Assembly: GCA_964438735.1 (NCBI GenBank) | Contig: CAYTLW010000004.1 | Span: 51,953-115,952, forward strand | DNA length: 64,000 nt | Source of the DNA: an uncultured Enterobacteriaceae bacterium | Lineage (GTDB): Bacteria > Myxococcota_A > UBA9042 | Direction of reading: 5' to 3' | Part shown: one piece after another, positions 26,212 through 48,590 of the stretch | How positions within the stretch are numbered: the stretch's first letter is position 1 | Layout of the letters: the number at the start of each line of letters is the position of its first letter | Program-made: the position numbers and the translations under genes | The notes under the pieces: model-generated | Database searches by the model: none | Seen by the model: only the letters and a program-made list of their open reading frames with translations | What the model was told of the DNA's origin: nothing

Positions 26212-28875
26212 CTACTTATACAACGCCCCGCCGGAATTCACCCGGGCGATGAACAGCCGAAAGCCGCCCGGGTTCGCGAGGCCGCCAAACGACTTGTTCG
26301 TATAGCCGCCAAACAGGATGTCACCGTTGAAGGTCATCTTGACCACGGCGCCGGCCGCGTTGCCGCCCATGGCCTGCCACTGCTTGTGCCAGAGCATCTG
26401 GCCGGACTTCTTGAACCAGGCCAGCTGCACGCCGTTGCTGCCGAAATTGCCGACGACGACCATGTTGCCTTCGGCGTCCATGTCCATGCCGTATCCGAAG
26501 TCGTCGGCCTTGGTGCCGAACTGCACCGAGCCAGGCAGCTCCTTGCCGGTCTTGTCCAGGTGCATCAAGTACATATCGCGGCCGCCCTTGCTGGGCTGGG
26601 GCTGCCAGAGCTTGCCCTTGGTCGAACCCAGCAGCCACAGCGTGCCGTCGGGATGTACGCGCAACTTGCGGCCCCAGTCGTCGGCGTTGGTGCCCATCTG
26701 CTTGAGCCAGAGCTGCTTGCCGGCGCCGTCGAAGGCGGTCACGAAGAGGTCAGAGCCGCCCTTATGCTTCTGACCGGCCAGGGGGTACTTGGCGCTACCG
26801 GTGGCGTACACGGCCTGGGATTTGTCCACCGCGATGCCTGTGACGCTGAGGCTGCCGGTGCTGTTGCCGAAGGTGGAGCGCCACTTCTTGGCGCCGGATT
26901 TGTCGTACCGGGCCACGTAGCCGACGTAGTGTTTTGAGGTCTTGAGGCCGTAACCGCCGGTGTAGACGTCGGTGCCGCCAGACGCTGTGGCGACGGACCA
27001 GGTCGACGCCCACGTGGTGGTCTTGTAGCTGTCGAACCAGACCTGCGTGGCGAACAACTGCTTGCCGTTGAGATCGAGCTTCTGGGTGTAGCCCGTCTGG
27101 GAGTTGCTGCCCGACTGCGGCTTGCCCTGTCCGGCCAGATAGACGTGCGAGCCCAGCACGCTCATGGTGCGCGGGATGTAGGAGTTGCCTGTGTAGTAGG
27201 CCTTGCTCAAGACGCTCTTGACGCCGTCGGGCTCGTAGCTCAGCAGCCGGGCCGGGTATTTGCTGGTCTGCAGGTCGCTCACGGCGACATAGACGTGGCC
27301 GTTTGGCGCCACACCCAAACCGGCTATGACCTTCTTGTTCAGCGACGTGTGTGCTTGGAAGTAGCGGGCGCCCTTCCAGCCGCAGCCATGGACCGCCTTG
27401 CTGGTGCACTTGCCGGTCTTGGCGTCGCAGCTGTCGGTGCTGCAGGGATTGTTGTCGTCGCAGGCCTTCATGGTGCCCTTGCAGGCGCCCTTGTCGCACT
27501 TGTCGGCGCTGGTGCACATGCTGCCGTCGTCGCAGCCGGGCGTGCCGGCGACCGGACTGGTCGTGCAGCCCTTGGCTTTATCGCAACTGTCGGTCGTGCA
27601 GGAATTGCCATCGTCGCAGACCTTGGTTTTGCCGCCGCCGCACTTGCCGGCCGTACAGGCCTTGTCGGTCATGCACATGTCGCCGTCTGCGCACGCCTTG
27701 CCGGCGGCGTTCTTGTGCACGCAGCCGGTCTTGGCGTCGCAGCTGTCGTCGGTGCAGTCGTTCTTGTCATCGCAGGTCTTGGGTTTGCCACTGCCGCATT
27801 GGCCGGTGGCGGGCACGCAGGCGGCCTCTGTGCAGGCATCGCCGCACTGCTTGGTGGTGCCGGCTGTGCACTTGCCGCCGGCGCAGACGTCGCCAGTGGT
27901 GCACTTATTGCCGTCCTCGCAGGCGGCGGTATTGGGCGTGTAGACGCAGCCCTTGGCCTTGTCGCAGGTGGCGTCCTTGCATCCCTTGGAGATGCAGGTC
28001 ATGGGGCTGCCAGATGTGCATTTGCCGGCTTTGCACACCTCGCCGACCGTGCAGGCACTGCCATCATCGCAGATCGGGCCAGCGCTGGTGGTGGGGTTGT
28101 CGATGATGCCATCGCAGTCGTTGTCGATGCCGTCGCAGATCTCCTTGCCGTCGCCTTCTGGCTTGCAGTCGGTCCACTTGCAACCGGGCTGATTGGCGCA
28201 GGCTCCGGCGTCCTTGCTGTCGGTGCACTGCGGGCCCTTGTCGCCGATCTGGCCGACACATGTGCCGGCCGTCCACAAGCAAACGGGCGCCTTGACGCTG
28301 GCGCACTGGGCGGCTGAATTCTTGGTGTAACAGGAGTTGACGAACAAGCACTTGGTACCAGCCCATTTGCAGCCCATGTAGTTGGCGATGTCGCAGTTCT
28401 TCTTGGTGTTGAGCTTGGGGCATTGCTTCTGGGCGGTGGGGTCCTTGGGCACGCATACGAAGCCTGCCAGCTTGCAGCCAACGGTGACCTGGCAGGTAGC
28501 GTGTTGGGCCTTGTCTTTGTAGATGCTGCACGACACGGAGCCCTGGCAGGAGAACTCCTTTGGCTGCGGGCCGGCATCGACGGGGCCGCTGTCGCTGGAC
28601 CCAGCGTCCCCGCCGCTCGAGTCGACAGCGCCGCCCGAATCGACGGCGCCGCCAACGTCAGCGGTCCCGCCGGCATCCACTGGACTGGTGCTGGTGTCGG
28701 CCTGGCCACCGCTATCAGGGGGGGTCGCGCCGTCGCTCGTCGCACCGTCTGCAGACGTCGTGTCGACGGTTCCGCCAGGAGAGGGCGGGTTGTCACTGCC
28801 ACAGGCACCGAGGGCCAGGGCGAGGGCGGCGAGCATGGCGCAAGGGCGCACGCCCCAGGAAGCTTGCGGGGTCAT
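26212..28875 (-). CDS. Secreted protein: Ser/Thr/Gly-rich linker, Myxococcus-type Cys-rich repeats, C-terminal SBBP beta-propeller repeats
   Basis: Signal MTPQASWGVRPCAMLAALALALGAC. It has about 10 CxDxxxCTxDxC modules (CDDKNDCTDDSCDAKTGC, CDDGNSCTTDSC...). The C-terminus has SBBP-like propeller segments (DVYTGGYG, SDLFVTAFDGAGKQLWLKQMG). Confidence 0.7.
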   Translation of the reverse strand: MTPQASWGVRPCAMLAALALALGACGSDNPPSPGGTVDTTSADGATSDGATPPDSGGQADTSTSPVDAGGTADVGGAVDSGGAVDSSGGDAGSSDSGPVDAGPQPKEFSCQGSVSCSIYKDKAQHATCQVTVGCKLAGFVCVPKDPTAQKQCPKLNTKKNCDIANYMGCKWAGTKCLFVNSCYTKNSAAQCASVKAPVCLWTAGTCVGQIGDKGPQCTDSKDAGACANQPGCKWTDCKPEGDGKEICDGIDNDCDGIIDNPTTSAGPICDDGSACTVGEVCKAGKCTSGSPMTCISKGCKDATCDKAKGCVYTPNTAACEDGNKCTTGDVCAGGKCTAGTTKQCGDACTEAACVPATGQCGSGKPKTCDDKNDCTDDSCDAKTGCVHKNAAGKACADGDMCMTDKACTAGKCGGGKTKVCDDGNSCTTDSCDKAKGCTTSPVAGTPGCDDGSMCTSADKCDKGACKGTMKACDDNNPCSTDSCDAKTGKCTSKAVHGCGWKGARYFQAHTSLNKKVIAGLGVAPNGHVYVAVSDLQTSKYPARLLSYEPDGVKSVLSKAYYTGNSYIPRTMSVLGSHVYLAGQGKPQSGSNSQTGYTQKLDLNGKQLFATQVWFDSYKTTTWASTWSVATASGGTDVYTGGYGLKTSKHYVGYVARYDKSGAKKWRSTFGNSTGSLSVTGIAVDKSQAVYATGSAKYPLAGQKHKGGSDLFVTAFDGAGKQLWLKQMGTNADDWGRKLRVHPDGTLWLLGSTKGKLWQPQPSKGGRDMYLMHLDKTGKELPGSVQFGTKADDFGYGMDMDAEGNMVVVGNFGSNGVQLAWFKKSGQMLWHKQWQAMGGNAAGAVVKMTFNGDILFGGYTNKSFGGLANPGGFRLFIARVNSGGALYK

Positions 28876-29115
28876 GGGTACTCCAGGAGGGCAAGGAACA
28901 GAATCTGGGCGACTCAGTGTCAGTTGTGGCGGGTCGGGTCAACCTGCCCATATGCCGGCGTGTGGGCCAGGGTGCTCGCTCCAACCCCCGCGCTTCACAT
29001 TGGATGCGCCGTCAGGGCATCGCCGACAAGCGCATGTCGAGCGATCGGTGCGCGCCTGCAAGCCGTTCGGTGTCAAGCGCGAGGGGCACGCGCCGAGGTC
29101 GCTGGGTATCGATGC

Positions 29116-33082: not shown

Positions 33083-36000
33083 TCAACGGCGTTGGCGGAT
33101 GGCCCTCACGCGTCGACCGAGGTGTACCACGTAGATCAGCACCAGGCAGATCAAGGAGGCCGCGCCGGCCACATCGAGGCCGACGCCTGGGCCCGGATCC
33201 ACGATTGTGCCGAAGTAGTGTTTGGTCAGCTTGTAGTCGACCAGGGTGCTGACCAGCCCCATCCTGCTGGTGCCGAGCCAGATGGATGCGAACACCGTCA
33301 CGCCGGTCAACTGGAGCGCGGCGAGGCCGAAGCGCCCGCTGAACATGTCGGACCAGCCGGGCAGGAGCCAGCCGATGACGCGCGAGAGCGTGCGATCGAT
33401 GGCCCGGCTGCGTCTCCACAGTCGACGGAACAACCCTTCAGTCGGCCCACCCGGCGGCTGCGGTGAAGGCGGCGGCTCCGGGATGATTGGCAACGGCCGC
33501 ACGGGCAACCACAGCAGCGAGAGCAGGGCCACCGCCAGCGTCCAGATGCCCAGGGCGCTGGACAGGGTGCGGGCCGGGCTGATGGTTTCGCCCAGGTCGC
33601 CGCCGGCGACCCGGAAGGCGGCCTGGGTGTCGCCGCTGATCAATCCCGCCAGCGACTGGGCGACGGCCTGCCCGAAGTCCTGCGCCGGGTTGAGCAGGTT
33701 GCGCACGTCGTTGAGGGTGCAGCGGGCCCACAAGGGGCGATCCGGCCCGGTGCGTTCCATAGGCAGGCGATCGCGCCGCGGCAACGTCTCGGCGGCGGGA
33801 TTGCTGCCAGCGAGGCGATCGCGATTCCACGCTGCCGACTCGGCCCCTGGCCCGCTGCCAGCGGCGGCGCGTTCGTACCCTTGGCGCGCGGCGTCCCGAT
33901 CGCCGGCCTGTTCGTCCAGCAAGGCGAGGTTGTTGCGCGCCATGGCGCTATCCGGCCAGTTGGCCAGCAGCCGATCGAGGGTCTGCCGCGCGGCGTCCAG
34001 CTGGCCGCGGGTGTAGCGGCCCTCGGCCTGCAGGTTCAGCACCGAGGGGCTGTCGCCGCTGGTCTCCAGTCGCCGCTCGAGCACTTCCAGGCAACCCGGC
34101 GCGCCGGCGTGGCCCGCGGCCACCGTGAGCGAGGCGTTGGCGTTGCGCATCACCACGGTGACGTTGGCCGACAGGATCGCGGCGCTGAGCAGGCTGAGCA
34201 GGGCCAGACCGAAGACTGCGAGCCGCTGCGGCCGGGTGGCGTAGGTCGGGAAGGTATGGCGCAGGCGGTCCACCGGGTGTTCCAGGAAGGCCACCAGGCG
34301 CTGTCGGCGGGTGCGGAAGCCGCGCGCGTGCAGGGCGGCAAAACGCGTCTTGCGCGGCCGCCACCACATGGCGATGAGCAGGATGAACAGGATCATGGGC
34401 GCCGCAGCGGAGATGGGCAGGGCGATGTCCACGAGGCGGACCTGAAACGTGTTCAGCAGCAGCGCAGCGCCCAACGGCGCCGATTCGCGGATTCGACGGG
34501 CCACCAGGCCGTTGGTATCGGGTCGGCCCTGCTGCCGCAGCCAGGCGCCCCAACGCCGATAGAACTTGGGGTCGTACTCGATGAAGTCGGCGAAGGCCCG
34601 ACCGCTCTCGACCAGTTGCAAGGCCCGTTCGATCTTGCCCTGCTGCCACAGCTCGTCGCCCAGTTTGCGTAGGACGAACGCCGGATTGCCGATGAGGGAC
34701 GCGTTCAGCTCGCTGTTGACGCCGGCGATCTGGGCGGCCTCCGCGGCCTGATCGATCAGCTTGTCCGCCCGCCCTGCAAAGCCCTCCCGCTCGAGCATGG
34801 CCGCGATGCGCGTGCCATGCAGCGGCAGCATGTCAGCGCTGTTGGCGACCACGCGATCGGCGAGTTGCGCGCGCCGAGCAGAGTCGGCGTCTTTGCCCAG
34901 CAGCTGCAAGACCATCAGCGGGATCTCGGGATCGAGGGGGTCGTCCTTCGCCAGCGCGGCCACGGTTTCGGCGGCCAGGCGCTTCAACGCGGGATCGTCT
35001 CCGGCCTTGTCCTTGTCCACGCCTGCCCGAGCTGCGCCGGCCTCCAGGGCTTGTTTGCGTACATTCTGGAGCCACTTCGGTGCGGCCCAGCCGCTGCCCA
35101 CGCGGTCGTTGGCGAAGATGGGCTGCTCCGGACCGGCGCGGAAGCGCAGCAGGTGCACCACGCCCTGGTCGACCAGCGACCAGACGGCCACGACCAGGCG
35201 TCGTCGATCGTTGGGATCGGGCCAGCCGTGCAGCGCCACGCCGGGCAGCTTCTGGCGCGCCAGCACCCGGCCTGTCAAGCCATCGCGACGGAGCAGGAAG
35301 GCGCCCAGCCCGAACACGATGGAGCCGTCGGCGACCGGCACGGCGAGCTGGCTTCGTTCGCCATCGGGCGCCGCGGCCGTGCGCCAGCGCCGTTTGCCGG
35401 TGCGTCGATCCCAGGCCTCCCAGGCGCCGTCGGCGGTGCGGGACAGGCGCGGCGCATCCACCGGCAGACCCTGCCGCAGCGCACCAAAGGGTGGCTCCAG
35501 CAGGGCGAAAGGCGGTACGCCATCGGCGCAGCCACCGCCGGCAACCGTGGCCGTGACCTGGGCGGCCGGGTGCAGGGCGCAGATGGCGGCCCTGCCCAGG
35601 CGTGCAGACTCGGCGTCCTTTGCGGTTGGCTGGCCCCCTTCGCGCTGGATGGTGGCCAGGGCGTCGAGCACCGCAGGCACCGGATCGCCGGCCACGATCG
35701 CCTCGTGCAGCACCCGGCACAGGCGCGTGGACGAGCCCACAAAACCCTCGCCATGGCGCAGCCTGTCGCTCAGCGACGTGTTCTTGATGGCCGGTCGCTT
35801 CATCAGCAATCCGCGCATGGACGCCGAACCGTGCTCCTGAAGGGAGGACCGACAGAGCTGGCCGAAGAGTTGCTCCCAGCGGCCTTGTTGCCAGAGCAGC
35901 GTTCGTGTCGCCCGGCCGAGCAACTCCCCCCGAGCCACGGCACGCGGTCCCAGTTCGGCCACGGTCTCTCGGAAGTCGGCCAGCGCCCGGGTAGCGGCGA

Positions 36001-37825
36001 AGGCGTCATGGGTCGCCAGCGCCTGCCAGGCCTTGGTGGCCCGATGATCCAGCGCACCGATCATCTCCCGGCGCTTCAGCTCGGCCTGTTTCGTCGCGGT
36101 CACCTCCTCCAGGCCCTGCCAGATCAGCAGCGCCAGGGCGATCGCCACGACCGCGCCGATTCCGGCGCGCAATCGCCCCGAACCCAGGCGTCGTACGCCC
36201 ATGGCGGTGGTCTCGCAGCGGGGTCGATCGGCGTGTCGATGACCTTCGAGCAGGGCCAGTTGGGCGCTGGCCAGTCCGGCGTCGCCGCGCTCCAGGGCCT
36301 CTTCGGCAAAGTGGATGGCGGCCCGGGCCTGGCCGCGAGAGGCCGGCTCGTTATCTGCCCACAGGTGCAAGGCCTGCTCGTGTCGGGACAGGGCCCGCGC
36401 ATAGAGGCCATAGCGTTCTTCCATGGCCACTTCGCCAGCGACCAGGCTGGCCAGCAGGCGGTCGCCCTCGTCGGACAGGCGCAGGGATTCGGCGTTGCCG
36501 AGCCAGGTTCGCAGGGCGGCCAGGAACGCGGCCGCGTCGGCGAAACGGTCGGCGGGGTCGCGGGCCATGGCCTGACGACAGATGGCTTGCAGGGCGCTGG
36601 GTACGTCGTCGTCGTAGGTGGGCGGTTCGGCCCGGCTGGCCGCGTGCAGCACGTCCATCAGCTGCGCGCCCTTGTGCGGCGGCGCGCCGGTGATCACCTC
36701 GTGCAGCATGGCGCCCAGCTGGAAGACGTCTGTCCACGGGCCGATGTCCCGATTGCGCGCCTCGGCCTGCTCCGGGGCCATGTAGCAGGGCGTGCCCGCC
36801 GGCCCCGTCGCGTCGTCCTTGTGGGGGCCCAGCGGCTGCTCCGGCCGCGGCTCGCGTACATCCAGGGAGATGCCCCAGTCCATCACCATGGTCTCGCCGA
36901 AGTCGCCGACCATGATGTTGGCGGGCTTCAGGTCGCGATGGGCGATGCCACGCGAATGCGCAAAGGCGATGGCGTTGCAGACGCTGATCAAGACATCCAC
37001 ATGGCGCCGCTGATCCCAGCCCTCCGCGGCTTTCTTGTGGGCGTCGGTGCGCGGATGCAGCAGGTCGTGCCAGCTGTGGCCGCGGACCAGCTTCATGGCC
37101 AGGAAGACCTCGCCCTGACCGGTCTCGCCGAGCTCGTGCACCGGGATCACGTTGGGATGATCCAGGGCGCCGGTGACCAGGGCTTCGGCAACGAACTGCT
37201 CCCGAGCCAGACCGCCCCCTCGACCTGGGATCAGCGTCTTGACCGCCACGTCGCGACGCAGGCTGCCCTGGGTGGCGCGATAGACCACGCCCATGCCGCC
37301 GCGGCCGATCTCGTCCTGGAGTTCGTACTGCTGCATGCCCTCGGCGGCGGTTGGAGCGGCCGTGGAGGGCATGGTGGGGGCGGTGACGGGGGCTGCGAGG
37401 GTGTCCGTGTCCGTGGCTGCGACCGTGTCGGCGCCAGTGTCCGTGTCTGTGTCTGTGTCCGTGGCTGCGACCGTGTCCGCGCCGGTGTCCGTGTCTGTGT
37501 CCGTGTCTGTGTCCGTGGCGGCGACCGTGTCGGCGCCCGTATCTGTGTCTGCGACCGCGTCGGTTGCGGCGAGGGTTTCGTCGAAGGCCTGCTCGCCTGT
37601 GACCGGCCGGTGACGGGCGACGCCGGGACCGACCAGGGCCACCTGCTGGCGGCCCCTCAGGCGTGGACTTGTTGTAAAGGCGGCCTGTGGCAGGCCACTC
37701 AGGGCGGGTGGAGGGGCTTTTTTCGCCGGCGCCGGGCGATAGGCGGCGACCGTGGATGCGGCATCCCAGTCGGCATCGGCGCCGATGGTCTCCGCCCACA
37801 CCTGCTTGATCTCGGCCCGATTCAT
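33083..37825 (-). CDS. Multidomain Ser/Thr protein kinase (Pkn-type): (TD)n repeat N-terminus, kinase, helical/TPR region, PQQ-like propeller, C-terminal multi-TM region
   Basis: Kinase motifs GRGGMGVVYRA, VAVK, HRDLKPANIM, DWG and APE are present. The N-terminal TDTDTDTDTGADTVAA repeats are encoded by a tandem DNA repeat at about 37395..37565. The C-terminus has at least 5 hydrophobic helices. Confidence 0.8.
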   Translation of the reverse strand: MNRAEIKQVWAETIGADADWDAASTVAAYRPAPAKKAPPPALSGLPQAAFTTSPRLRGRQQVALVGPGVARHRPVTGEQAFDETLAATDAVADTDTGADTVAATDTDTDTDTDTGADTVAATDTDTDTDTGADTVAATDTDTLAAPVTAPTMPSTAAPTAAEGMQQYELQDEIGRGGMGVVYRATQGSLRRDVAVKTLIPGRGGGLAREQFVAEALVTGALDHPNVIPVHELGETGQGEVFLAMKLVRGHSWHDLLHPRTDAHKKAAEGWDQRRHVDVLISVCNAIAFAHSRGIAHRDLKPANIMVGDFGETMVMDWGISLDVREPRPEQPLGPHKDDATGPAGTPCYMAPEQAEARNRDIGPWTDVFQLGAMLHEVITGAPPHKGAQLMDVLHAASRAEPPTYDDDVPSALQAICRQAMARDPADRFADAAAFLAALRTWLGNAESLRLSDEGDRLLASLVAGEVAMEERYGLYARALSRHEQALHLWADNEPASRGQARAAIHFAEEALERGDAGLASAQLALLEGHRHADRPRCETTAMGVRRLGSGRLRAGIGAVVAIALALLIWQGLEEVTATKQAELKRREMIGALDHRATKAWQALATHDAFAATRALADFRETVAELGPRAVARGELLGRATRTLLWQQGRWEQLFGQLCRSSLQEHGSASMRGLLMKRPAIKNTSLSDRLRHGEGFVGSSTRLCRVLHEAIVAGDPVPAVLDALATIQREGGQPTAKDAESARLGRAAICALHPAAQVTATVAGGGCADGVPPFALLEPPFGALRQGLPVDAPRLSRTADGAWEAWDRRTGKRRWRTAAAPDGERSQLAVPVADGSIVFGLGAFLLRRDGLTGRVLARQKLPGVALHGWPDPNDRRRLVVAVWSLVDQGVVHLLRFRAGPEQPIFANDRVGSGWAAPKWLQNVRKQALEAGAARAGVDKDKAGDDPALKRLAAETVAALAKDDPLDPEIPLMVLQLLGKDADSARRAQLADRVVANSADMLPLHGTRIAAMLEREGFAGRADKLIDQAAEAAQIAGVNSELNASLIGNPAFVLRKLGDELWQQGKIERALQLVESGRAFADFIEYDPKFYRRWGAWLRQQGRPDTNGLVARRIRESAPLGAALLLNTFQVRLVDIALPISAAAPMILFILLIAMWWRPRKTRFAALHARGFRTRRQRLVAFLEHPVDRLRHTFPTYATRPQRLAVFGLALLSLLSAAILSANVTVVMRNANASLTVAAGHAGAPGCLEVLERRLETSGDSPSVLNLQAEGRYTRGQLDAARQTLDRLLANWPDSAMARNNLALLDEQAGDRDAARQGYERAAAGSGPGAESAAWNRDRLAGSNPAAETLPRRDRLPMERTGPDRPLWARCTLNDVRNLLNPAQDFGQAVAQSLAGLISGDTQAAFRVAGGDLGETISPARTLSSALGIWTLAVALLSLLWLPVRPLPIIPEPPPSPQPPGGPTEGLFRRLWRRSRAIDRTLSRVIGWLLPGWSDMFSGRFGLAALQLTGVTVFASIWLGTSRMGLVSTLVDYKLTKHYFGTIVDPGPGVGLDVAGAASLICLVLIYVVHLGRRVRAIRQRR

Positions 37826-37925
37826 GGCTGCCCTTGCCGCTTTTGTCGCCAGGGGCCAAGCCTACTTCAGGGCAGGGCGTGGTGTCATGGCTGGCAAGCG
37901 CTCGATGGGGTCTTGTCCTGGGCGC

Positions 37926-42635: not shown

Positions 42636-44684
42636 TCAGCGAACGACCGCGCTTTGACAGAGCGCGCTGACCAGCGGCTCCAGGTCGTCGGTCCCGCTCG
42701 AAATCGCCGTCTCCAAGGCTCGGGCGTGGTCCCCGCAGGTGGTCAGCCCGTACATGCCAGCGCTGCCGGCGAGCTTGTGGGCAATAGCCGCGACACCCTG
42801 GCGATCCCCGGCCTGCCAGGACGATTGCAATTCAGCGATGCGATCGGGCAGGCGTTCCTCGAACTGCTGCTTCTGCACTGCCAAGGCCCGGGCGAGAATC
42901 TCCTCGGCGGCCGGGCGGGCCTGTTCGTGCTCGTTGCACTCGTCCGCTTCGACCTGGCGGCTCGCCGCCTCCGGCAGCAGGTCGGCCATGGCCGATAGCA
43001 GCACGGCGAAGTCCACGGGTTTGGTCACATAGCCGTCGCAACCGGCGGCCAGGCATCGTTCGCGGTCGCCGGCCATGGCGTGCGCCGTCAGCGCGATGAC
43101 CGGACCGCCATGACCATCTGCGCGCAGCCTGCTGGTGGCGGCATAGCCGTCGAGCACGGGCATCTGCATGTCCATCAAGATCATGTCGAAGGCCTGGCCA
43201 CCAGCGGCTGCCTCGCGGACGGCGTGCAGCGCCGCGCCGCCATTGTCCACCAACTCCACAGAGGCACCCGCGCGCTCGAGGTGGAGCGCGATCAGTCGGC
43301 CGCTGTCAGCGAAGTCCTCGGCCAGCAGCACGGACACATCGGTCAGGTCCAACTGGTGCACTGCCTGCGGCTTGCTCGCCTGTCGCAGCCCCCCACGTGC
43401 AGGATCGCGCAGCCCGGCCGCCTCGTCGGCCGAGACCGGCAGGATCAGCCGGAAGCAGCTGCCCACATCCACCGTACTCTCCGCTTCCAGGCGGCCGCCC
43501 ATCAACTCGGCCAGCTGTCGCGAGATGGTCAGGCCCAGTCCCGTGCCACCGTATACGCGGGCCGTGCTGGCGTCGGCCTGCACGAAGGGCTGAAAGAGAG
43601 ACTCCAAGCGGGCCTTGTCGACGCCGATCCCGCTGTCGATGACCTCGAGCCGAAGTTCTCGATTTCCTTCGGCCAGGGCGACCCGAATTCGGACCCTGCC
43701 CTTGCGTGTGAACTTCACGGCGTTGCCCATCAAGTTGAGCAGCACCTGCTTGAGCCGCAGGGGATCGCTGTGCAGTCGTTCGGGCACCCGCGTGGCGTAC
43801 TCGATGCCGAACTCCAGCCCCCGTACGTTCGACTGGACCCTCATCAGCGAGGCCACATCCTCGACCACCGCCTGGACGTCGACGGGTACCGACTCCACGA
43901 GCAGCTCGCCTGCCTCGATCTTGGCCAGGTCGAGCACCTGGTTGACCAGATCGACCAGGTGAGCGCTGTTGCGCTGGATCACCTGCGTGGCTTGTTCACG
44001 TTCATCGGCGCTGACTCGCGGGTCGGATAACAGGTCACCGTAGCCGGTGATGGCTGCCAGCGGCGTGCGCAATTCGTGGCTCATGTGGGCGAGGAAGGAG
44101 GACTTGGCCGAAGACGCTGCCTGGGCAGCCGCCGTGGCGCGACGAAGGTTCTCCGTAGCCACAGCGAGCCGCTTGCCCCGCTGACGCATGGCCTCTGCTA
44201 CTGGCGCAGTCACCATGGCGACGGCCAGCATGGCCAGTCCGGGTACCAGCCACGCCATCGTCGGCCCGGCCATGTGCTGCCAGGCGCCCAGTACCAGGAC
44301 GATGAGCGCGACCTCTGCCGCCAACGCCGCGCCAAAGCTCAACAGGTAGGGGACCGCGACGATGGCCGGCAGCGCCACCACCCACGCTTCCGTCGTCGGC
44401 CCGCCGAGCCACGCCAGCGGCGGCAGCAGCAGCAGCGACAGGCCGGCTCGCGCGCCGTCGAGCGCCCTACCTGGCTCCTCACCCCGTTCGATGCGCCGCT
44501 TGATGATGACATTCAGCGCGATATTGCCGGCCACAAAGAGCACGGACACGATGGCTGCGAGCCAGGGGTGTGCGGACCCGGCCACCACGTAGGCGCACGT
44601 CAGGACCACGGGCAAGGGCATCGCCTTGTCCAGGAACTGGCTGCCAGCGGTTTCGAATGACTGCTGGCTGTGCGTGTTGTTCAC
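42636..44684 (-). CDS. Hybrid sensor histidine kinase / response regulator with C-terminal HPt domain and N-terminal multi-TM sensor
   Basis: GTG start at 44684. H-box FLAHMSHELRTPLAAI, HATPase G-boxes, receiver DMILMDMQMPVLDG, HPt HKLAGSAGMYGL. Confidence 0.85.
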   Translation of the reverse strand: MNNTHSQQSFETAGSQFLDKAMPLPVVLTCAYVVAGSAHPWLAAIVSVLFVAGNIALNVIIKRRIERGEEPGRALDGARAGLSLLLLPPLAWLGGPTTEAWVVALPAIVAVPYLLSFGAALAAEVALIVLVLGAWQHMAGPTMAWLVPGLAMLAVAMVTAPVAEAMRQRGKRLAVATENLRRATAAAQAASSAKSSFLAHMSHELRTPLAAITGYGDLLSDPRVSADEREQATQVIQRNSAHLVDLVNQVLDLAKIEAGELLVESVPVDVQAVVEDVASLMRVQSNVRGLEFGIEYATRVPERLHSDPLRLKQVLLNLMGNAVKFTRKGRVRIRVALAEGNRELRLEVIDSGIGVDKARLESLFQPFVQADASTARVYGGTGLGLTISRQLAELMGGRLEAESTVDVGSCFRLILPVSADEAAGLRDPARGGLRQASKPQAVHQLDLTDVSVLLAEDFADSGRLIALHLERAGASVELVDNGGAALHAVREAAAGGQAFDMILMDMQMPVLDGYAATSRLRADGHGGPVIALTAHAMAGDRERCLAAGCDGYVTKPVDFAVLLSAMADLLPEAASRQVEADECNEHEQARPAAEEILARALAVQKQQFEERLPDRIAELQSSWQAGDRQGVAAIAHKLAGSAGMYGLTTCGDHARALETAISSGTDDLEPLVSALCQSAVVR

Positions 44685-44981
44685 CAGGAGCTCCGCAGCA
44701 GCCGTGGGCGGGTGTGCGCTGTGCCACTTCTATGCCAGAAGGCTGCCCGTTTCGTCTACGGAACGGCCCCCGACGACGACCGTGCCAGACCTGGCCAAGC
44801 GGGCGCTGCAAGCGCACAGCCGGCACAAGCGATGACCGCAATTGCAGTCAGCTCGAGTCCGCCCCCGCTGGCCATGCTGACGTCAGCGCTCCTGGCCGCC
44901 CGACCTCGCCTTCACCGCGACCCGACAGCGGTGGTAGGCTCTCCCTTGTGGAGCACGACCGCTCCCTGTTGGAGAGTGCAT

Positions 44982-45560
44982 ATGCCCCCCCCACCCGCCC
45001 TCGCGTTGATCCTGGTCGCCGCCGCGCTGGCCATCGCAGGCGCTCGCATGGCCTGGCTTCTGGGCAACATGAACGTGAACGTGCCGGCGTTCACCGCCGT
45101 GGTCCTCAAGCTGTTGATGTCCGGCAACCAGGACCGGGCGCGCAAGATCTGCAACGCCACTCCCAGGGTGCCCCTGGCCATCGGTGTTCGCTTGATGTTG
45201 GAGAGCGTCGACGGCGTGGACGATGACGCCGAGCTCAGACGCCGCCTCGGACCGGTGTGGCTCAAGCAGGTGCTCGGCCTGCGACCAACATTGCGGCGAT
45301 TCGACCAGGCGACCCGGCTGGTGCTCGGCCTGGCCGGCGCCGGCGTCGTGTTATCGCTGTTTGGCGGCGGCGGTCTGCACCCGATGATCCTGGGGCCCGT
45401 AGTGGCCACCGCGGTCGTCGCCGCGGCGACCGAGTTCAAGCTGCGCCAGGTAGAGGCCGCGACCTTGGAGAGCTGGGAGCGGGTGCTGGACTTCCTGGCC
45501 CGCGGGCTGCGCGACGAGGTCATCGCCGAGTATGAGCGCAAGGGCCTCGATGTGAATTGA
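44982..45560 (+). CDS. Hypothetical membrane protein (3 predicted TM helices)
   Basis: ATG at 44982 inside track ORF 44670..45560. It has an N-terminal TM helix (ALALILVAAALAIAG) and two more at about residues 135-175. Function unclear. Confidence 0.45.
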   Translation: MPPPPALALILVAAALAIAGARMAWLLGNMNVNVPAFTAVVLKLLMSGNQDRARKICNATPRVPLAIGVRLMLESVDGVDDDAELRRRLGPVWLKQVLGLRPTLRRFDQATRLVLGLAGAGVVLSLFGGGGLHPMILGPVVATAVVAAATEFKLRQVEAATLESWERVLDFLARGLRDEVIAEYERKGLDVN

Positions 45561-45606: not shown

Positions 45607-46119
45607 ATGAACGATGACGCCATCTTCGCCATCGAACGTCCCGATGACAGCCTGCTCAAGCTCTACGTGATCCGTTCGCTGGTGCTGGGCCCCCTGTTCT
45701 GGGTGATGTTGCTGCCGCTGTACTTCCGCTTTCGCACGCTGCGTTATCGATTCGATGATGAAGGCGTGTCCATGAGCTGGGGCATCCTCTTCCGACGCGA
45801 GATCCACCTGACCTACGCGCGCATTCAGGACATTCACCTGGTCAGCGGCTTCGTGCAGCGCTGGCTGGGCCTGGCCGACGTGCTGGTGCAGACCGCGTCG
45901 GGCAACGCGGGCGCCGAGATGCGCATCGAAGGCATGCTGGAGTGCGGCGATGTGCGCGACTTCCTCTATCGGCGCATGCGCGGCGGCGACAAGATCGAAG
46001 CGCCGGCCAGCAAGGATACCGACGGCGCAGATGACGAGCTGGTCGACCTGCTGCACGCCATGCGCGATGACCTGGCCGCCGTACGCACGGCCATCGAGGG
46101 CGGGGGCGCAGATGTTTGA
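45607..46119 (+). CDS. Bacterial PH-domain (bPH_2/YdbS-like) membrane protein
   Basis: The N-terminal TM hairpin (LVLGPLFWVMLLPLYF) is followed by a bPH_2-like core (EIHLTYARIQDIHLVSGFVQRWLGLADVLVQTASG). Confidence 0.65.
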   Translation: MNDDAIFAIERPDDSLLKLYVIRSLVLGPLFWVMLLPLYFRFRTLRYRFDDEGVSMSWGILFRREIHLTYARIQDIHLVSGFVQRWLGLADVLVQTASGNAGAEMRIEGMLECGDVRDFLYRRMRGGDKIEAPASKDTDGADDELVDLLHAMRDDLAAVRTAIEGGGADV

Positions 46120-46888
46120 GACCCTGCGCGGCCTGGTGACGCGCTGGCTGCGCGTGCCCGAAGCGCCCGAACCGCCGGCAGGCTCCGAAGGCACCTTGAC
46201 CGTATTCCAGCCCGGTGAGCGTTACGTGCGCTACAAGATGGTTGGCTGGTGGCTCGGTCATGCGTCGCTCTTTCTCTTCATCCTGTCGCCCACCGTGCTG
46301 GCGCCGGCGCTGATCCTGCTGGGTGCCCGGCTGCGATCTGAGGCCATGTGGCTGGGCGCGCTGGCCATGTGCATCGTGGCGGTGTTCTGCTTGTTGGGCT
46401 GGGTCGCCTTCATGGTCGCCACCTGGGTCACCGTGCGCATGGATCGCGACCTGCGCTGGTACATGGTCACCGACCGCGCGGTCCGCATCCGCGAAGGCGT
46501 CTGGTTCGTGCGCGAGATGACCCTGACCTTCGACAACATCCAGAACGTCTCGGTCGCCCAGGGCCCCCTGCAACGCTACTTCGGCCTCGCCGATGTGCAG
46601 GTACAGACCGCCGGCGGTGGTGGTGTGCAGGCCGGCGCCGAGGGCGCCGCGCAGGATACCCTGCATACCGGCTTCTTCCGCGGCGTCGAGGATGCGGCGG
46701 CGATTCGCGACTTTCTGATTGAGCGAATGCGCACCGGTCGGGACTCCGGGCTTGGCGATCCGGACGATCCCGCGCTGGCCAGGCGTGCAACTCAGCAGGG
46801 CCTGTCGCCCGCGGCCATGGCTGCGTTGCGCGAGGTCGCTGGACAGACGCGTGCCCTACGGGATGTGCTGGCCGGCAAGGCCCGGTGA
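46112..46888 (+). CDS. Bacterial PH-domain (bPH_2/YdbT-like) membrane protein
   Basis: ATG at 46112 overlaps the previous gene by 8 nt. TM hairpin followed by bPH_2 core (TLTFDNIQNVSVAQGPLQRYFGLADVQVQTAGG). Confidence 0.65.
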   Translation: MFETLRGLVTRWLRVPEAPEPPAGSEGTLTVFQPGERYVRYKMVGWWLGHASLFLFILSPTVLAPALILLGARLRSEAMWLGALAMCIVAVFCLLGWVAFMVATWVTVRMDRDLRWYMVTDRAVRIREGVWFVREMTLTFDNIQNVSVAQGPLQRYFGLADVQVQTAGGGGVQAGAEGAAQDTLHTGFFRGVEDAAAIRDFLIERMRTGRDSGLGDPDDPALARRATQQGLSPAAMAALREVAGQTRALRDVLAGKAR

Positions 46889-46936: not shown

Positions 46937-48406
46937 TCAGGGCCCCGAGCAGCAATCCAGGTCGAGGATCTCGCCGTTGGTATAGTCATCGACCCGTAGA
47001 TCCGGCCGCGGTCGGTCGGTCACGGCCTTCAACTCCGACGTACCGTGCACGTCGATGTAGCGTGTCCAGACGCCAGGGCAGAGATTGTCGAAAGCGCAGC
47101 CGTCGCAGGTCTCTTTGGGTTTGACCCGCTCGGGATCGGCCAGGGTGCCGGTGTAGTCGCCCATCAGGTCGTAGTGGTCGATGTAATCCGGCGCCACGCA
47201 GGGCGGCAGGGCGCAGCATTGGGAGCTCTCGACCCGCAGACCGGTCTCGCGGCCCATCTCGAAGGCGCCGACGAAGGGCGTCAGGCACTCGGTGAACGAG
47301 GGCAGCAGCGCGTGATGTGACCAGGCGTGGCCGCGCGGGATGGGATAGCTGAACTGCAGCCGCTCCAGGGCGCCTCCCCACCGATCCCAGCACCAGCGAC
47401 CAAACGCGGGCAGGTGGGCCAGGCTGGGGCGCATGACCACGGCGGTGATCTTGATGCGGAAGCCCATCTTGGCGGCCAGGTCGATGGCGCGCACCTTGCG
47501 GGCGTGTCGTTCGGTGGCGGGGCCTTTTGCGAGCACGGCGCGCGGCGGCAGGGAGGGGCCCTTGCCGTCGATGGAGAAGCGCTGCGCCAGGGGTTTGTCG
47601 GGCACATCCAGCGCGCCCGTCATCATGTCCGAGATGTGTGGATCGGCCGCGTGCAGGGAGAAACCCAGGCCCAGCCGTTCGCGATAGGGCAGGTAGGGCT
47701 CCAGCGCGCCCGGCTCGCCGAAGCGGATGCCATTGGTCTGCACGATGATCTCGTCGGCGCCACGCTCCCAGGCCAGTCTGACGAAGTCGGGCAGGTCCTT
47801 GACCAGGGTCGGCTCGCCGCCGGAGAAGATGACCTGGCTGAGCGAACCGGCCGGCAGGCGCTTGAGGATGTCGCGCAGGGCCGACTTGGAGGTGACCAGG
47901 TTGGCGTTGCCTTCGGTGGCGTTGCAGAACATGCAGTTCTCGTCGCACTGGTCGGTGACCCGGATGTAGAGCTTCTTGCCCGGCGACACCTCCAGGTACT
48001 TCTCCTGCCCCGGCCGGACGAAGTAGCGCGAAAAGAGCTCGTCCACCGACCAGCCGCGCGTGGCGGTGACCGTCTGCAGGCGTTTGCCCACCTCGCGTAG
48101 CAGCGCCTCCATGCGCCGGTCGAAGGCCTCGCCGCGATAGGAGACATTCCACGCATTGGTGCGGAAGAAGGCGGCGCTGTCCTCATCGTGGGGACGAAGC
48201 AGCACGGCAAAGGGCACCGCGTCGCCGTTGACCGTCACGCCCATGCGCAAGTGGTCGCCTTCGTGAGTCCAATCGCTGACCTGGACCACGCCCAGCCGAT
48301 CGCCGGCGCGGATCTCACACGGGGCGCCAAAGTCGTCGAAGAAGCGCTCAAGGCGCGGCACGGCGTCTTTGTCCTTGGGAATTACGGCGTGATCGAACAG
48401 GGCCAT
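46937..48406 (-). CDS. Radical SAM enzyme with SPASM-like C-terminal Cys cluster and ~140-aa N-terminal extension
   Basis: CX3CX2C at CDENCMFCNA and SAM-binding GGEP (IFSGGEPTL). C-terminal Cys pairs (QCCALPPC and CDGCAFDNLCPG). SD AGGAGG 10 nt upstream of the ATG at 48406. Monocistronic. Confidence 0.75.
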   Translation of the reverse strand: MALFDHAVIPKDKDAVPRLERFFDDFGAPCEIRAGDRLGVVQVSDWTHEGDHLRMGVTVNGDAVPFAVLLRPHDEDSAAFFRTNAWNVSYRGEAFDRRMEALLREVGKRLQTVTATRGWSVDELFSRYFVRPGQEKYLEVSPGKKLYIRVTDQCDENCMFCNATEGNANLVTSKSALRDILKRLPAGSLSQVIFSGGEPTLVKDLPDFVRLAWERGADEIIVQTNGIRFGEPGALEPYLPYRERLGLGFSLHAADPHISDMMTGALDVPDKPLAQRFSIDGKGPSLPPRAVLAKGPATERHARKVRAIDLAAKMGFRIKITAVVMRPSLAHLPAFGRWCWDRWGGALERLQFSYPIPRGHAWSHHALLPSFTECLTPFVGAFEMGRETGLRVESSQCCALPPCVAPDYIDHYDLMGDYTGTLADPERVKPKETCDGCAFDNLCPGVWTRYIDVHGTSELKAVTDRPRPDLRVDDYTNGEILDLDCCSGP

Positions 48407-48460
48407 AGGGCCGGCACCTCCTGGCCGATCAGGCTAGCGTGCGCCGGCGATTCTGCCCAG

Positions 48461-48590
48461 TTGTGAATCGCCTGGCACCCTACAAAACGGCGAGTTGTGA
48501 ATCAAAGGCACCCTACAAAACGGCGAGTTGTGAATCAAAGGCACCCTACAAAACGGCGAGTTGTGAATCAAACGCACCCTACAAATCGCA
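48461..48590. repeat. Four tandem copies of a 33-bp AT-rich repeat (TTGTGAATCAAAGGCACCCTACAAAACGGCGAG) in a divergent promoter region
   Basis: Copy 1 is 34 bp with a variant (TCGCCTGG), copies 2-3 are identical, and copy 4 diverges at its 3' end. About 48% GC against about 70% for the window. No spacers, so not CRISPR. Confidence 0.9.

Follow-up and report, generated by a model that had tools for sequence, protein, structure and literature searches.

Radical S-adenosylmethionine (SAM) enzymes with auxiliary clusters do highly unusual chemistry, and most of their families have no assigned function. One of the described systems closest to the gene considered here is the His-Xaa-Ser (HXS) system, whose hxsD-hxsB-hxsC-hxsA cassette is reported to be almost constant (99.6% of systems); in it, HxsB and HxsC reportedly mature the protein HxsA, and HxsC is described as having two 4Fe-4S motifs, C105/C108 and C342/C345, of which the second is a CxxC (PMC13128918). 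The pairing of a radical-SAM 'B' protein with a nitrogenase-like HDK enzyme is established as well, for IsrB, MarB and NfaB (PMC11423573). Here we analyse a radical-SAM gene of an uncultured member of the Myxococcota, encoded within a 64,000-nucleotide stretch of contig CAYTLW010000004.1 (assembly GCA_964438735.1), in the following called the window. Our data make it likely that its product is a stand-alone enzyme of three modules—an N-terminal domain, which we call X, a radical-SAM core and a C-terminus with a putative auxiliary cluster—which operates outside any cluster for ribosomally synthesized and post-translationally modified peptides (RiPPs). Although similar to HxsC, the enzyme falls outside the HxsC family, as neither the score nor the cassette of that family is present.

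A first-pass annotation, made from the nucleotide sequence alone, had described this gene as encoding a radical-SAM enzyme with auxiliary Cys motifs towards the C-terminus and an unassigned N-terminal extension of about 140 residues, and in these respects it proved accurate. The open reading frame (ORF), of 489 residues on the minus strand, has exactly the extent noted and is a real, conserved gene, because its codon composition (GC contents of 0.67, 0.47 and 0.87 at the first, second and third codon positions) is typical of the genes in this window of 68% GC; moreover, its start site coincides with the N-termini of aligned homologues. All of the quoted motifs could be located, i.e. CDENCMFC at residues 154-161, QCCALPPC at residues 396-403 and CDGCAFDNLCPG at residues 434-445. 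The length of the extension is correct as well, because the Pfam Radical_SAM match begins only at residue 149. Pfam matches nothing in the N-terminal domains of 23 family members.

Membership in the radical-SAM superfamily follows from the CX3CX2C motif and from PF04055 (residues 149-262, 46.1 bits versus a gathering score of 29.5) together with a partial TIM-barrel fold. Both CDENCMFC and SGGEP are invariant in 38 of 38 aligned family members. A full-length AlphaFold (AF2) model built from this 38-sequence alignment reached a predicted local distance difference test score (pLDDT) of 87.5 and a predicted template modelling score of 0.83; a core loop at about residues 264-299, which is missing from a short subfamily, was modelled with low confidence. 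The only other Pfam match of the protein, Fer4_12, is sub-threshold. In NCBIfam no cutoff of a curated family is reached: the top matches are HxsC4 (NF038332, 58.6 bits versus a cutoff of 500), TrsS, Tes, MoaA (TIGR02666, 40.9 versus 284; TIGR02668, 41.7 versus 325; both over residues 144-230 only) and HxsC (TIGR03977, 41.5 versus 267.9), with alignments mostly covering residues of about 144-231 and none extending beyond residue 265. Searches of PDB sequences, whether with the single protein or with a family profile, gave matches confined to the first half of the core, i.e. to GDGT-MAS, BlsE, SkfB, MoaA and viperin. With MoaA, GDGT-MAS/Tes, BlsE and viperin the window protein thus has in common the first half of the core, which binds the cluster and SAM (NCBIfam E values of 1e-10 to 1e-13; in the PDB, 7tol with E 2e-6), whereas these matches end at around residue 230-265 and the C-terminal and N-terminal domains are unrelated. 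For prokaryotic viperin, for instance, the PADLOC profile pVip matches with E 3e-11 at residues 150-229 only (profile positions 9-88 of 262), and the NCBIfam viperin model gives 32 bits versus a cutoff of 180. AhbC, AhbD and NirJ models match weakly and in the core only. With no NCBIfam model near its cutoff, the protein does not fall into a known housekeeping radical-SAM family; such a classification would have spoken against the first-pass annotation. It is an unclassified orphan.

An important question is what the Cys-rich C-terminus stands for, since it had been taken as a sign of a SPASM/twitch peptide-modifying enzyme. The richness in Cys is real, the peptide-modifying assignment found no support. 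SPASM/twitch maturases such as SkfB, SuiB, CteB and anSME have seven motif Cys, in the SPASM case arranged as CX9-15GX4C ... CX2CX5CX3C ... C, whereas in the family alignment of the window protein exactly four C-terminal Cys are invariant, i.e. C403, C434, C437 and C443. An invariant Trp, W447, stands where CX2CX5CX3C would have its last Cys; C374, which is almost invariant, has G385 after it, yet the Cys of GX4C is missing, and the CC at 397/398 as well as the terminal CC vary across the family. SPASM (PF13186) is absent from the whole-protein Pfam matches at E<=1, and the C-terminal 134 residues of nine family members match neither SPASM nor any other Pfam model even at E<=10. Four invariant Cys would also fit one twitch-type cluster; among the best 25 NCBIfam families listed there is no twitch-specific model. 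In contrast to these maturases, the window protein furthermore comes without an N-terminal domain resembling a RiPP recognition element (RRE) and without a precursor, protease or transporter context. With no more than four invariant Cys in the C-terminus and no matching SPASM hidden Markov model (HMM), C403, C434, C437 and C443 most likely hold one putative auxiliary [4Fe-4S] cluster of the HxsC/HxsC4 kind rather than the two clusters of a canonical SPASM domain.

The likeness to the HxsC type at this site is suggested by more distant relatives. Relatives with 25-35% identity share a PPC...CxxCx5C(P/S)G(V/L) motif with the window protein, and the motif is present in the distant relatives P0044, P0048 and P0070; the top curated matches of such relatives are consistently HxsC4 or HxsC, and several of these alignments reach the end of the profile. 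What the window protein itself has in common with HxsC and HxsC4 is the order of a radical-SAM core and then a second Cys motif with a CxxC. It differs in that its own match covers mainly the first 90-120 or so core residues, in that its locus has neither the hxsD-B-C-A set nor a paired radical-SAM gene nor an HxS-repeat protein, and in that it carries X as an additional N-terminal domain. Among these relatives, P0044 is the closest outgroup (35% identity) and is encoded within a run of six radical-SAM genes, and P0048 (Polyangium sp. 6x1, L012) consists of two tandem radical-SAM modules, with the PPC...CxxCx5C motif after each of them, and belongs to a cluster for sugar modification that also encodes an epimerase, PIG-L, glycosyltransferases and a radical-SAM-GFO_IDH_MocA fusion. 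The presence of X between the two radical-SAM modules of such 600-residue relatives was considered and given up, as hhalign rejects it for P0048 (E 0.41) and gives no significant match for P0044 (E 0.029, probability 1.7%).

At closer range, a search of 5.8 billion proteins returned about 43 full-length homologues with 48-77% identity plus one copy with 99% identity, all of them proteins without specific names and, where a source is named, from metagenome-assembled genomes (MAGs) of Myxococcales or Deltaproteobacteria. When 185,579 species genomes (one per species) were searched, 18 carried a full-length member, all of these being uncultured MAGs that are mostly labelled Myxococcales, Myxococcota or Deltaproteobacteria, with a few generic labels and two reading 'uncultured Enterobacteriaceae'; the next matches after these 18 have only 20-25% identity. 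The family is uncharacterised and confined to uncultured Myxococcota.

X is a domain without earlier description that is absent from Pfam and the PDB. In the model it runs through a helix, four antiparallel strands, a long helix and a short helix, and when modelled alone it reaches a pLDDT of 86. Its signature is LLRPhDxxxxAFxRTxxWNVSYRG (core RPrDxxxxAFxRTxxxNVSY), with G50, W86 and Y90 invariant. Foldseek gave no structural match at E<=0.001 and no relative in the PDB, and there is no RRE signal, with PqqD/RRE-type structures missing from both the Pfam and the Foldseek lists. A word-indexed search with the X profile returned one fragment only, whereas an exhaustive HMMER search of 1.84 billion representatives revealed other architectures, in eight proteins altogether, some of which are family members or fragments. 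In P0064 a U32-like region precedes X (residues 344-437, E 3e-12); and in P0065 and P0067 X is followed by a nitrogenase component-1-like oxidoreductase. Besides these, P0079 (551 residues) is a radical-SAM protein with X at the C-terminus. The 847-residue P0070, from the P0067 cluster, has the order radical SAM-X-Oxidored_nitro (hhalign probability 94.5%), and its radical-SAM part closes with CRTCRLDAVCPGVMTRYVAVHG, a motif that the window protein has as CDGCAFDNLCPGVWTRYIDVHG. A second Oxidored_nitro gene lies downstream of that for P0070; in L079 and L080 such a second gene follows. Similar fusions of 850-910 residues occur in other MAGs, and both of those with a named source are labelled Deltaproteobacteria. 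X is therefore a small mobile module that is attached to Fe-S enzymes.

Both the window and the loci of homologues are devoid of the surroundings expected for a RiPP maturase. Neighbourhoods were compared at 22 family loci by clustering of predicted neighbours, with annotated gene tables for a subset, and no neighbour family turned out to be universal. Within the window the neighbouring genes are unrelated, and the lack of an adjacent precursor, transporter or protease that the first-pass annotation had pointed out extends to a second radical-SAM gene: no other PF04055 protein occurs among the window ORFs scanned (positions 1801-54854, which is the range of all such statements below) or next to homologues. 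For a small precursor ORF, for which the first-pass annotation had left some room, the 22 loci were searched for frames of 20-110 residues within 1.5 kb; the only ones to cluster were R/S/T-rich shadows, in alternative frames, of the uvrB and VWA genes, and no small ORF is conserved beside the gene. Adjacent peptidases or exporters do not occur at the annotated family loci. With neither an RRE-like fold in the enzyme nor a conserved precursor next to it, the RiPP reading is unsupported, and with respect to RiPP-type neighbours the enzyme is indeed an orphan.

For a stand-alone enzyme of this kind, the superfamily suggests a plausible course of action. The cluster held by C154, C158 and C161 and the GGE motif would bind SAM and cleave it reductively to a 5'-deoxyadenosyl radical, which would then take a hydrogen atom from the substrate. 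As in other radical-SAM enzymes with auxiliary clusters, the auxiliary cluster may serve electron transfer or substrate anchoring. Most likely, the enzyme would act in trans on a protein or on a cofactor or metabolite made elsewhere. X might be a substrate- or partner-docking module, a role that we tentatively propose in view of its attachment to other Fe-S enzymes. Several points weigh against this picture as a whole: the single auxiliary cluster is assigned from conservation of residues, both action in trans and docking by X are what we infer rather than observe, and matches to X outside of the family are few, with some of them weak (P0067, E=7e-4; P0072, hhalign probability 7%). In addition, the adjacency to MoxR and VWA genes found at many family loci (see below) is part of a wider synteny that includes uvrB, a CoA-transferase, an amidohydrolase, HPPK and DsbA.

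More specific explanations have to be weighed against this general reading. The enzyme could be a RiPP or protein maturase working in trans, with its substrate encoded elsewhere as for HxsC and HxsA or for anSMEs and sulfatases, and with X as a non-canonical recognition domain. That HxsC4 and HxsC are the top curated HMMs not only for the window protein but also for all of its distant relatives, that HxsC is reported to mature a protein and that the Cys motif of the C-terminus is in part like that of SPASM domains are all in keeping with such a role. However, the scores remain far under the family cutoffs, the scanned window ORFs offer neither an hxsD-B-C-A-like context nor a second radical-SAM gene, and an RRE-like fold was not found, just as a conserved adjacent peptide ORF (22 loci) and an adjacent peptidase or exporter (annotated loci) are missing; we therefore regard this explanation as unlikely.

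The gene order in homologues points in a different direction. In 11 of the 22 loci the order is fam7-MoxR-DUF58-VWA-VWA, then the radical-SAM gene, then a convergent uvrB, which the downstream end of the radical-SAM gene overlaps or nearly abuts; in ten of these 11, the second VWA gene and the radical-SAM gene are direct neighbours on one strand, the latter lying 3' at a gap of 19-167 bp. Because loci of this type, which share 49-93% identity, sit on both deep branches of a neighbour-joining tree, the arrangement is probably ancestral. Pairs of MoxR and VWA proteins take part in the maturation of metalloproteins or cofactors, and so the enzyme could be an accessory of a MoxR-DUF58-VWA-VWA (Bat-like) system that modifies one of its components or clients, with the gene having moved off the operon in the lineage of the window. 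Yet the other flank, i.e. uvrB and beyond, is equally conserved, and because the far side of uvrB is thus also syntenic, the adjacency may reflect common descent instead of function. Moreover, the remaining loci keep the radical-SAM gene without these neighbours, and those of the window and of its 77%-identical relative (L007) each have a context of their own; bacteria without this radical-SAM family widely carry MoxR-DUF58-VWA operons; and neither MoxR nor VWA, nor UvrB, is found among the scanned window ORFs. A functional tie to this system thus seems unlikely.

About equally unlikely is that the enzyme acts on a cofactor or other small molecule (e.g. a tetrapyrrole or a metallocluster), similar to the radical-SAM 'B' partners of nitrogenase-like reductases. 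This proposal draws on the fusions described above, in which X and the C-terminal motif recur together with a NifE/D-like domain and a second Oxidored_nitro gene comes next, and on the precedent of radical-SAM 'B' proteins with nitrogenase-like HDK sets in Isr, Mar and Nfa (PMC11423573). Furthermore, in five of the 22 loci the radical-SAM gene and hemC are divergently oriented, three of the five also having hemD, and the many invariant Arg and Lys residues would suit an anionic substrate. What speaks against it is that neither the scanned window ORFs nor the annotated family loci contain an Oxidored_nitro or NifH-like gene, that the hemC clade is monophyletic and thus represents one evolutionary event, that identity to the radical-SAM part of the fusion is only 22% and that the matches to AhbC, AhbD and NirJ are of the limited kind given above. 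In comparison with NifB-NifEN or with IsrB, MarB and NfaB and their HDK partners, it is relatives of the window protein, sharing X and the C-terminal motif, that are fused to a NifE/D-like domain with a second component-1-like gene next to them, so the parallel would concern these X-bearing relatives and not the window gene itself. In the hemC clade (L022-L026 and L009), hemC encodes porphobilinogen deaminase, and L009 has a class-III aminotransferase gene next, possibly hemL. A bolder version, which we put forward as speculation with rather low expectations, would have X, as a new docking or carrier module, couple HxsC4-like radical-SAM enzymes to NifE/D-type reductases and U32-type Fe-S enzymes; the window protein would then stand alone as the 'B' component of a so far undescribed, Fe-S-dependent pathway for a cofactor or metabolite in uncultured Myxococcota.

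That the tandem-repeat frames beside the gene encode repeat-core precursor peptides for the enzyme is highly improbable: two open frames of 64 and 47 residues do cross the array, but both start with GTG, their GC content at third codon positions is 0.57 (plus strand) and 0.62 (minus strand) versus 0.80-0.87 in the two flanking genes, the repeat copies are near-identical as DNA (96-100%) with no synonymous drift, partial copies also lie 3' of the neighbouring gene for a 226-residue protein, and neither the array nor a conserved small ORF is found at the 77%-identical homologue or the other fetched family loci. The first-pass annotation had noted both frames, with APYKTASCESK and SPFCRVPLIHN each repeated three times, and had itself thought it unlikely that they are precursors; they are present as noted and, by sequence analysis, are excluded as precursors because of the low GC3, the identity of the copies at the DNA level and the absence of an array beside the 77%-identical homologue. 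The repeats are non-coding intergenic DNA separate from the enzyme and associated, if anything, with the 226-residue gene, which the repeat (AGTTGTGAATCnAAGGCACCCTACAAA core) brackets in the same orientation on both sides. The array lies in a 242-bp intergenic region with a GC content of 56%, and the array itself has no Rfam match, no signal of RNA structure (fold z-score +0.75) and neither a sigma-70 nor a terminator consensus. The contig of a 99%-identical strain (L011) ends inside the array, and because this is a typical assembly break, the array is taken to be present in that strain as well. A metagenome scan with the exact repeat pattern gave zero matches; with a looser pattern it gave a single unrelated 1.2-kb contig (L078), probably a chance match.

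Overall, we see here a compact and conserved family of little-studied uncultured myxobacteria, in which an HxsC-type four-Cys motif is combined with a domain X that is found in neither Pfam nor the PDB. The recurrence of X in radical SAM-nitrogenase-like fusions offers a tangible starting point in the search for the pathway. With regard to genome mining, the locus illustrates that a lone radical-SAM gene with C-terminal Cys motifs beside a tandem repeat should not score as a RiPP cluster.

Table 1. Positions in the window of the radical-SAM gene, its parts, the 33-bp repeats and the neighbouring genes (strand '.', no orientation assigned).
Feature	Position	Strand	Basis or remark
Radical-SAM gene, 489 residues plus stop codon	46937..48406	-	ORF list, ATG start; uncharacterised Myxococcota-restricted family
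Shine-Dalgarno-like AGGAGG, 10 nt 5' of the ATG	48417..48422	-	direct sequence reading
N-terminal domain X, residues 1-135 (folded about 17-128)	48002..48406	-	
Radical-SAM core, residues 140-355, including SGGEP (GGE) SAM-binding motif	47342..47989	-	
CX3CX2C motif CDENCMFC, residues 154-161 (C154, C158, C161), predicted SAM-binding [4Fe-4S] site	47924..47947	-	sequence; alignment
C-terminal domain, residues 356-489, four invariant Cys	46940..47341	-	invariant alignment columns
Invariant C403	47198..47200	-	
Invariant C434	47105..47107	-	
Invariant C437	47096..47098	-	
Invariant C443	47078..47080	-	
33-bp tandem repeat, 3.8 copies, divergent intergenic region	48459..48585	.	Tandem Repeats Finder (TRF)
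About 1.3 more copies of the 33-bp repeat, 3' of the 226-residue gene	49331..49371	.	
Mechanical 64-residue ORF over the repeats (APYKTASCESK x3)	48439..48633	+	judged non-gene
Mechanical 47-residue ORF over the repeats (SPFCRVPLIHN x3)	48434..48577	-	judged non-gene
Hybrid histidine kinase	42636..44684	-	
Protein of unknown function	44670..45560	+	
bPH_2 membrane protein (YdbS/YdbT-like bacterial PH domain)	45607..46119	+	
bPH_2 membrane protein (YdbS/YdbT-like bacterial PH domain)	about 46100..46888	+	
Repeat-flanked 226-residue gene	48649..49329	+	no Pfam match above gathering score
Amidohydro_3 enzyme	49391..~51150	-	
Cys-rich lipoproteins	from 51381	+	

Among the genes surrounding the radical-SAM gene (table 1), the bPH_2 pair is convergent with it and is kept only in the 99%-identical strain. 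The repeat-flanked 226-residue protein has a hydrophobic middle and is probably membrane-spanning; its C-terminal motif CAWCKSVRDDEGYWKRVDTYISENSAASFSHGMCPCCEEK (CxxC...CxxC) is zinc-ribbon-like and stays below every Pfam gathering score. The mechanical 908-residue ORF beyond it (49391-52117, minus strand) is over-extended: only the part up to about 51150 is an Amidohydro_3 (D-aminoacylase-like) domain, and its upstream part overlaps the plus-strand gene for a Cys-rich lipoprotein (51381-52691). This amidohydrolase, two genes away from the radical-SAM gene, was considered as a hint of D-amino acids and dismissed, as it is kept beside no homologue. Large Cys-rich secreted proteins with Dicty_CTDC and MopE-type repeats are encoded at 26212-28938 (minus strand), 52857-54854 (plus strand) and 54344-56845 (plus strand), with a 117-bp tandem repeat in five copies (55609-56190) inside the last of these. 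A further tandem repeat, GTGTCC-based with periods of 12, 36 and 48 bp (37401-37572), lies in the gene for a 1592-residue Ser/Thr kinase-TPR protein (33083-37861, minus strand), where it presumably encodes a low-complexity linker.

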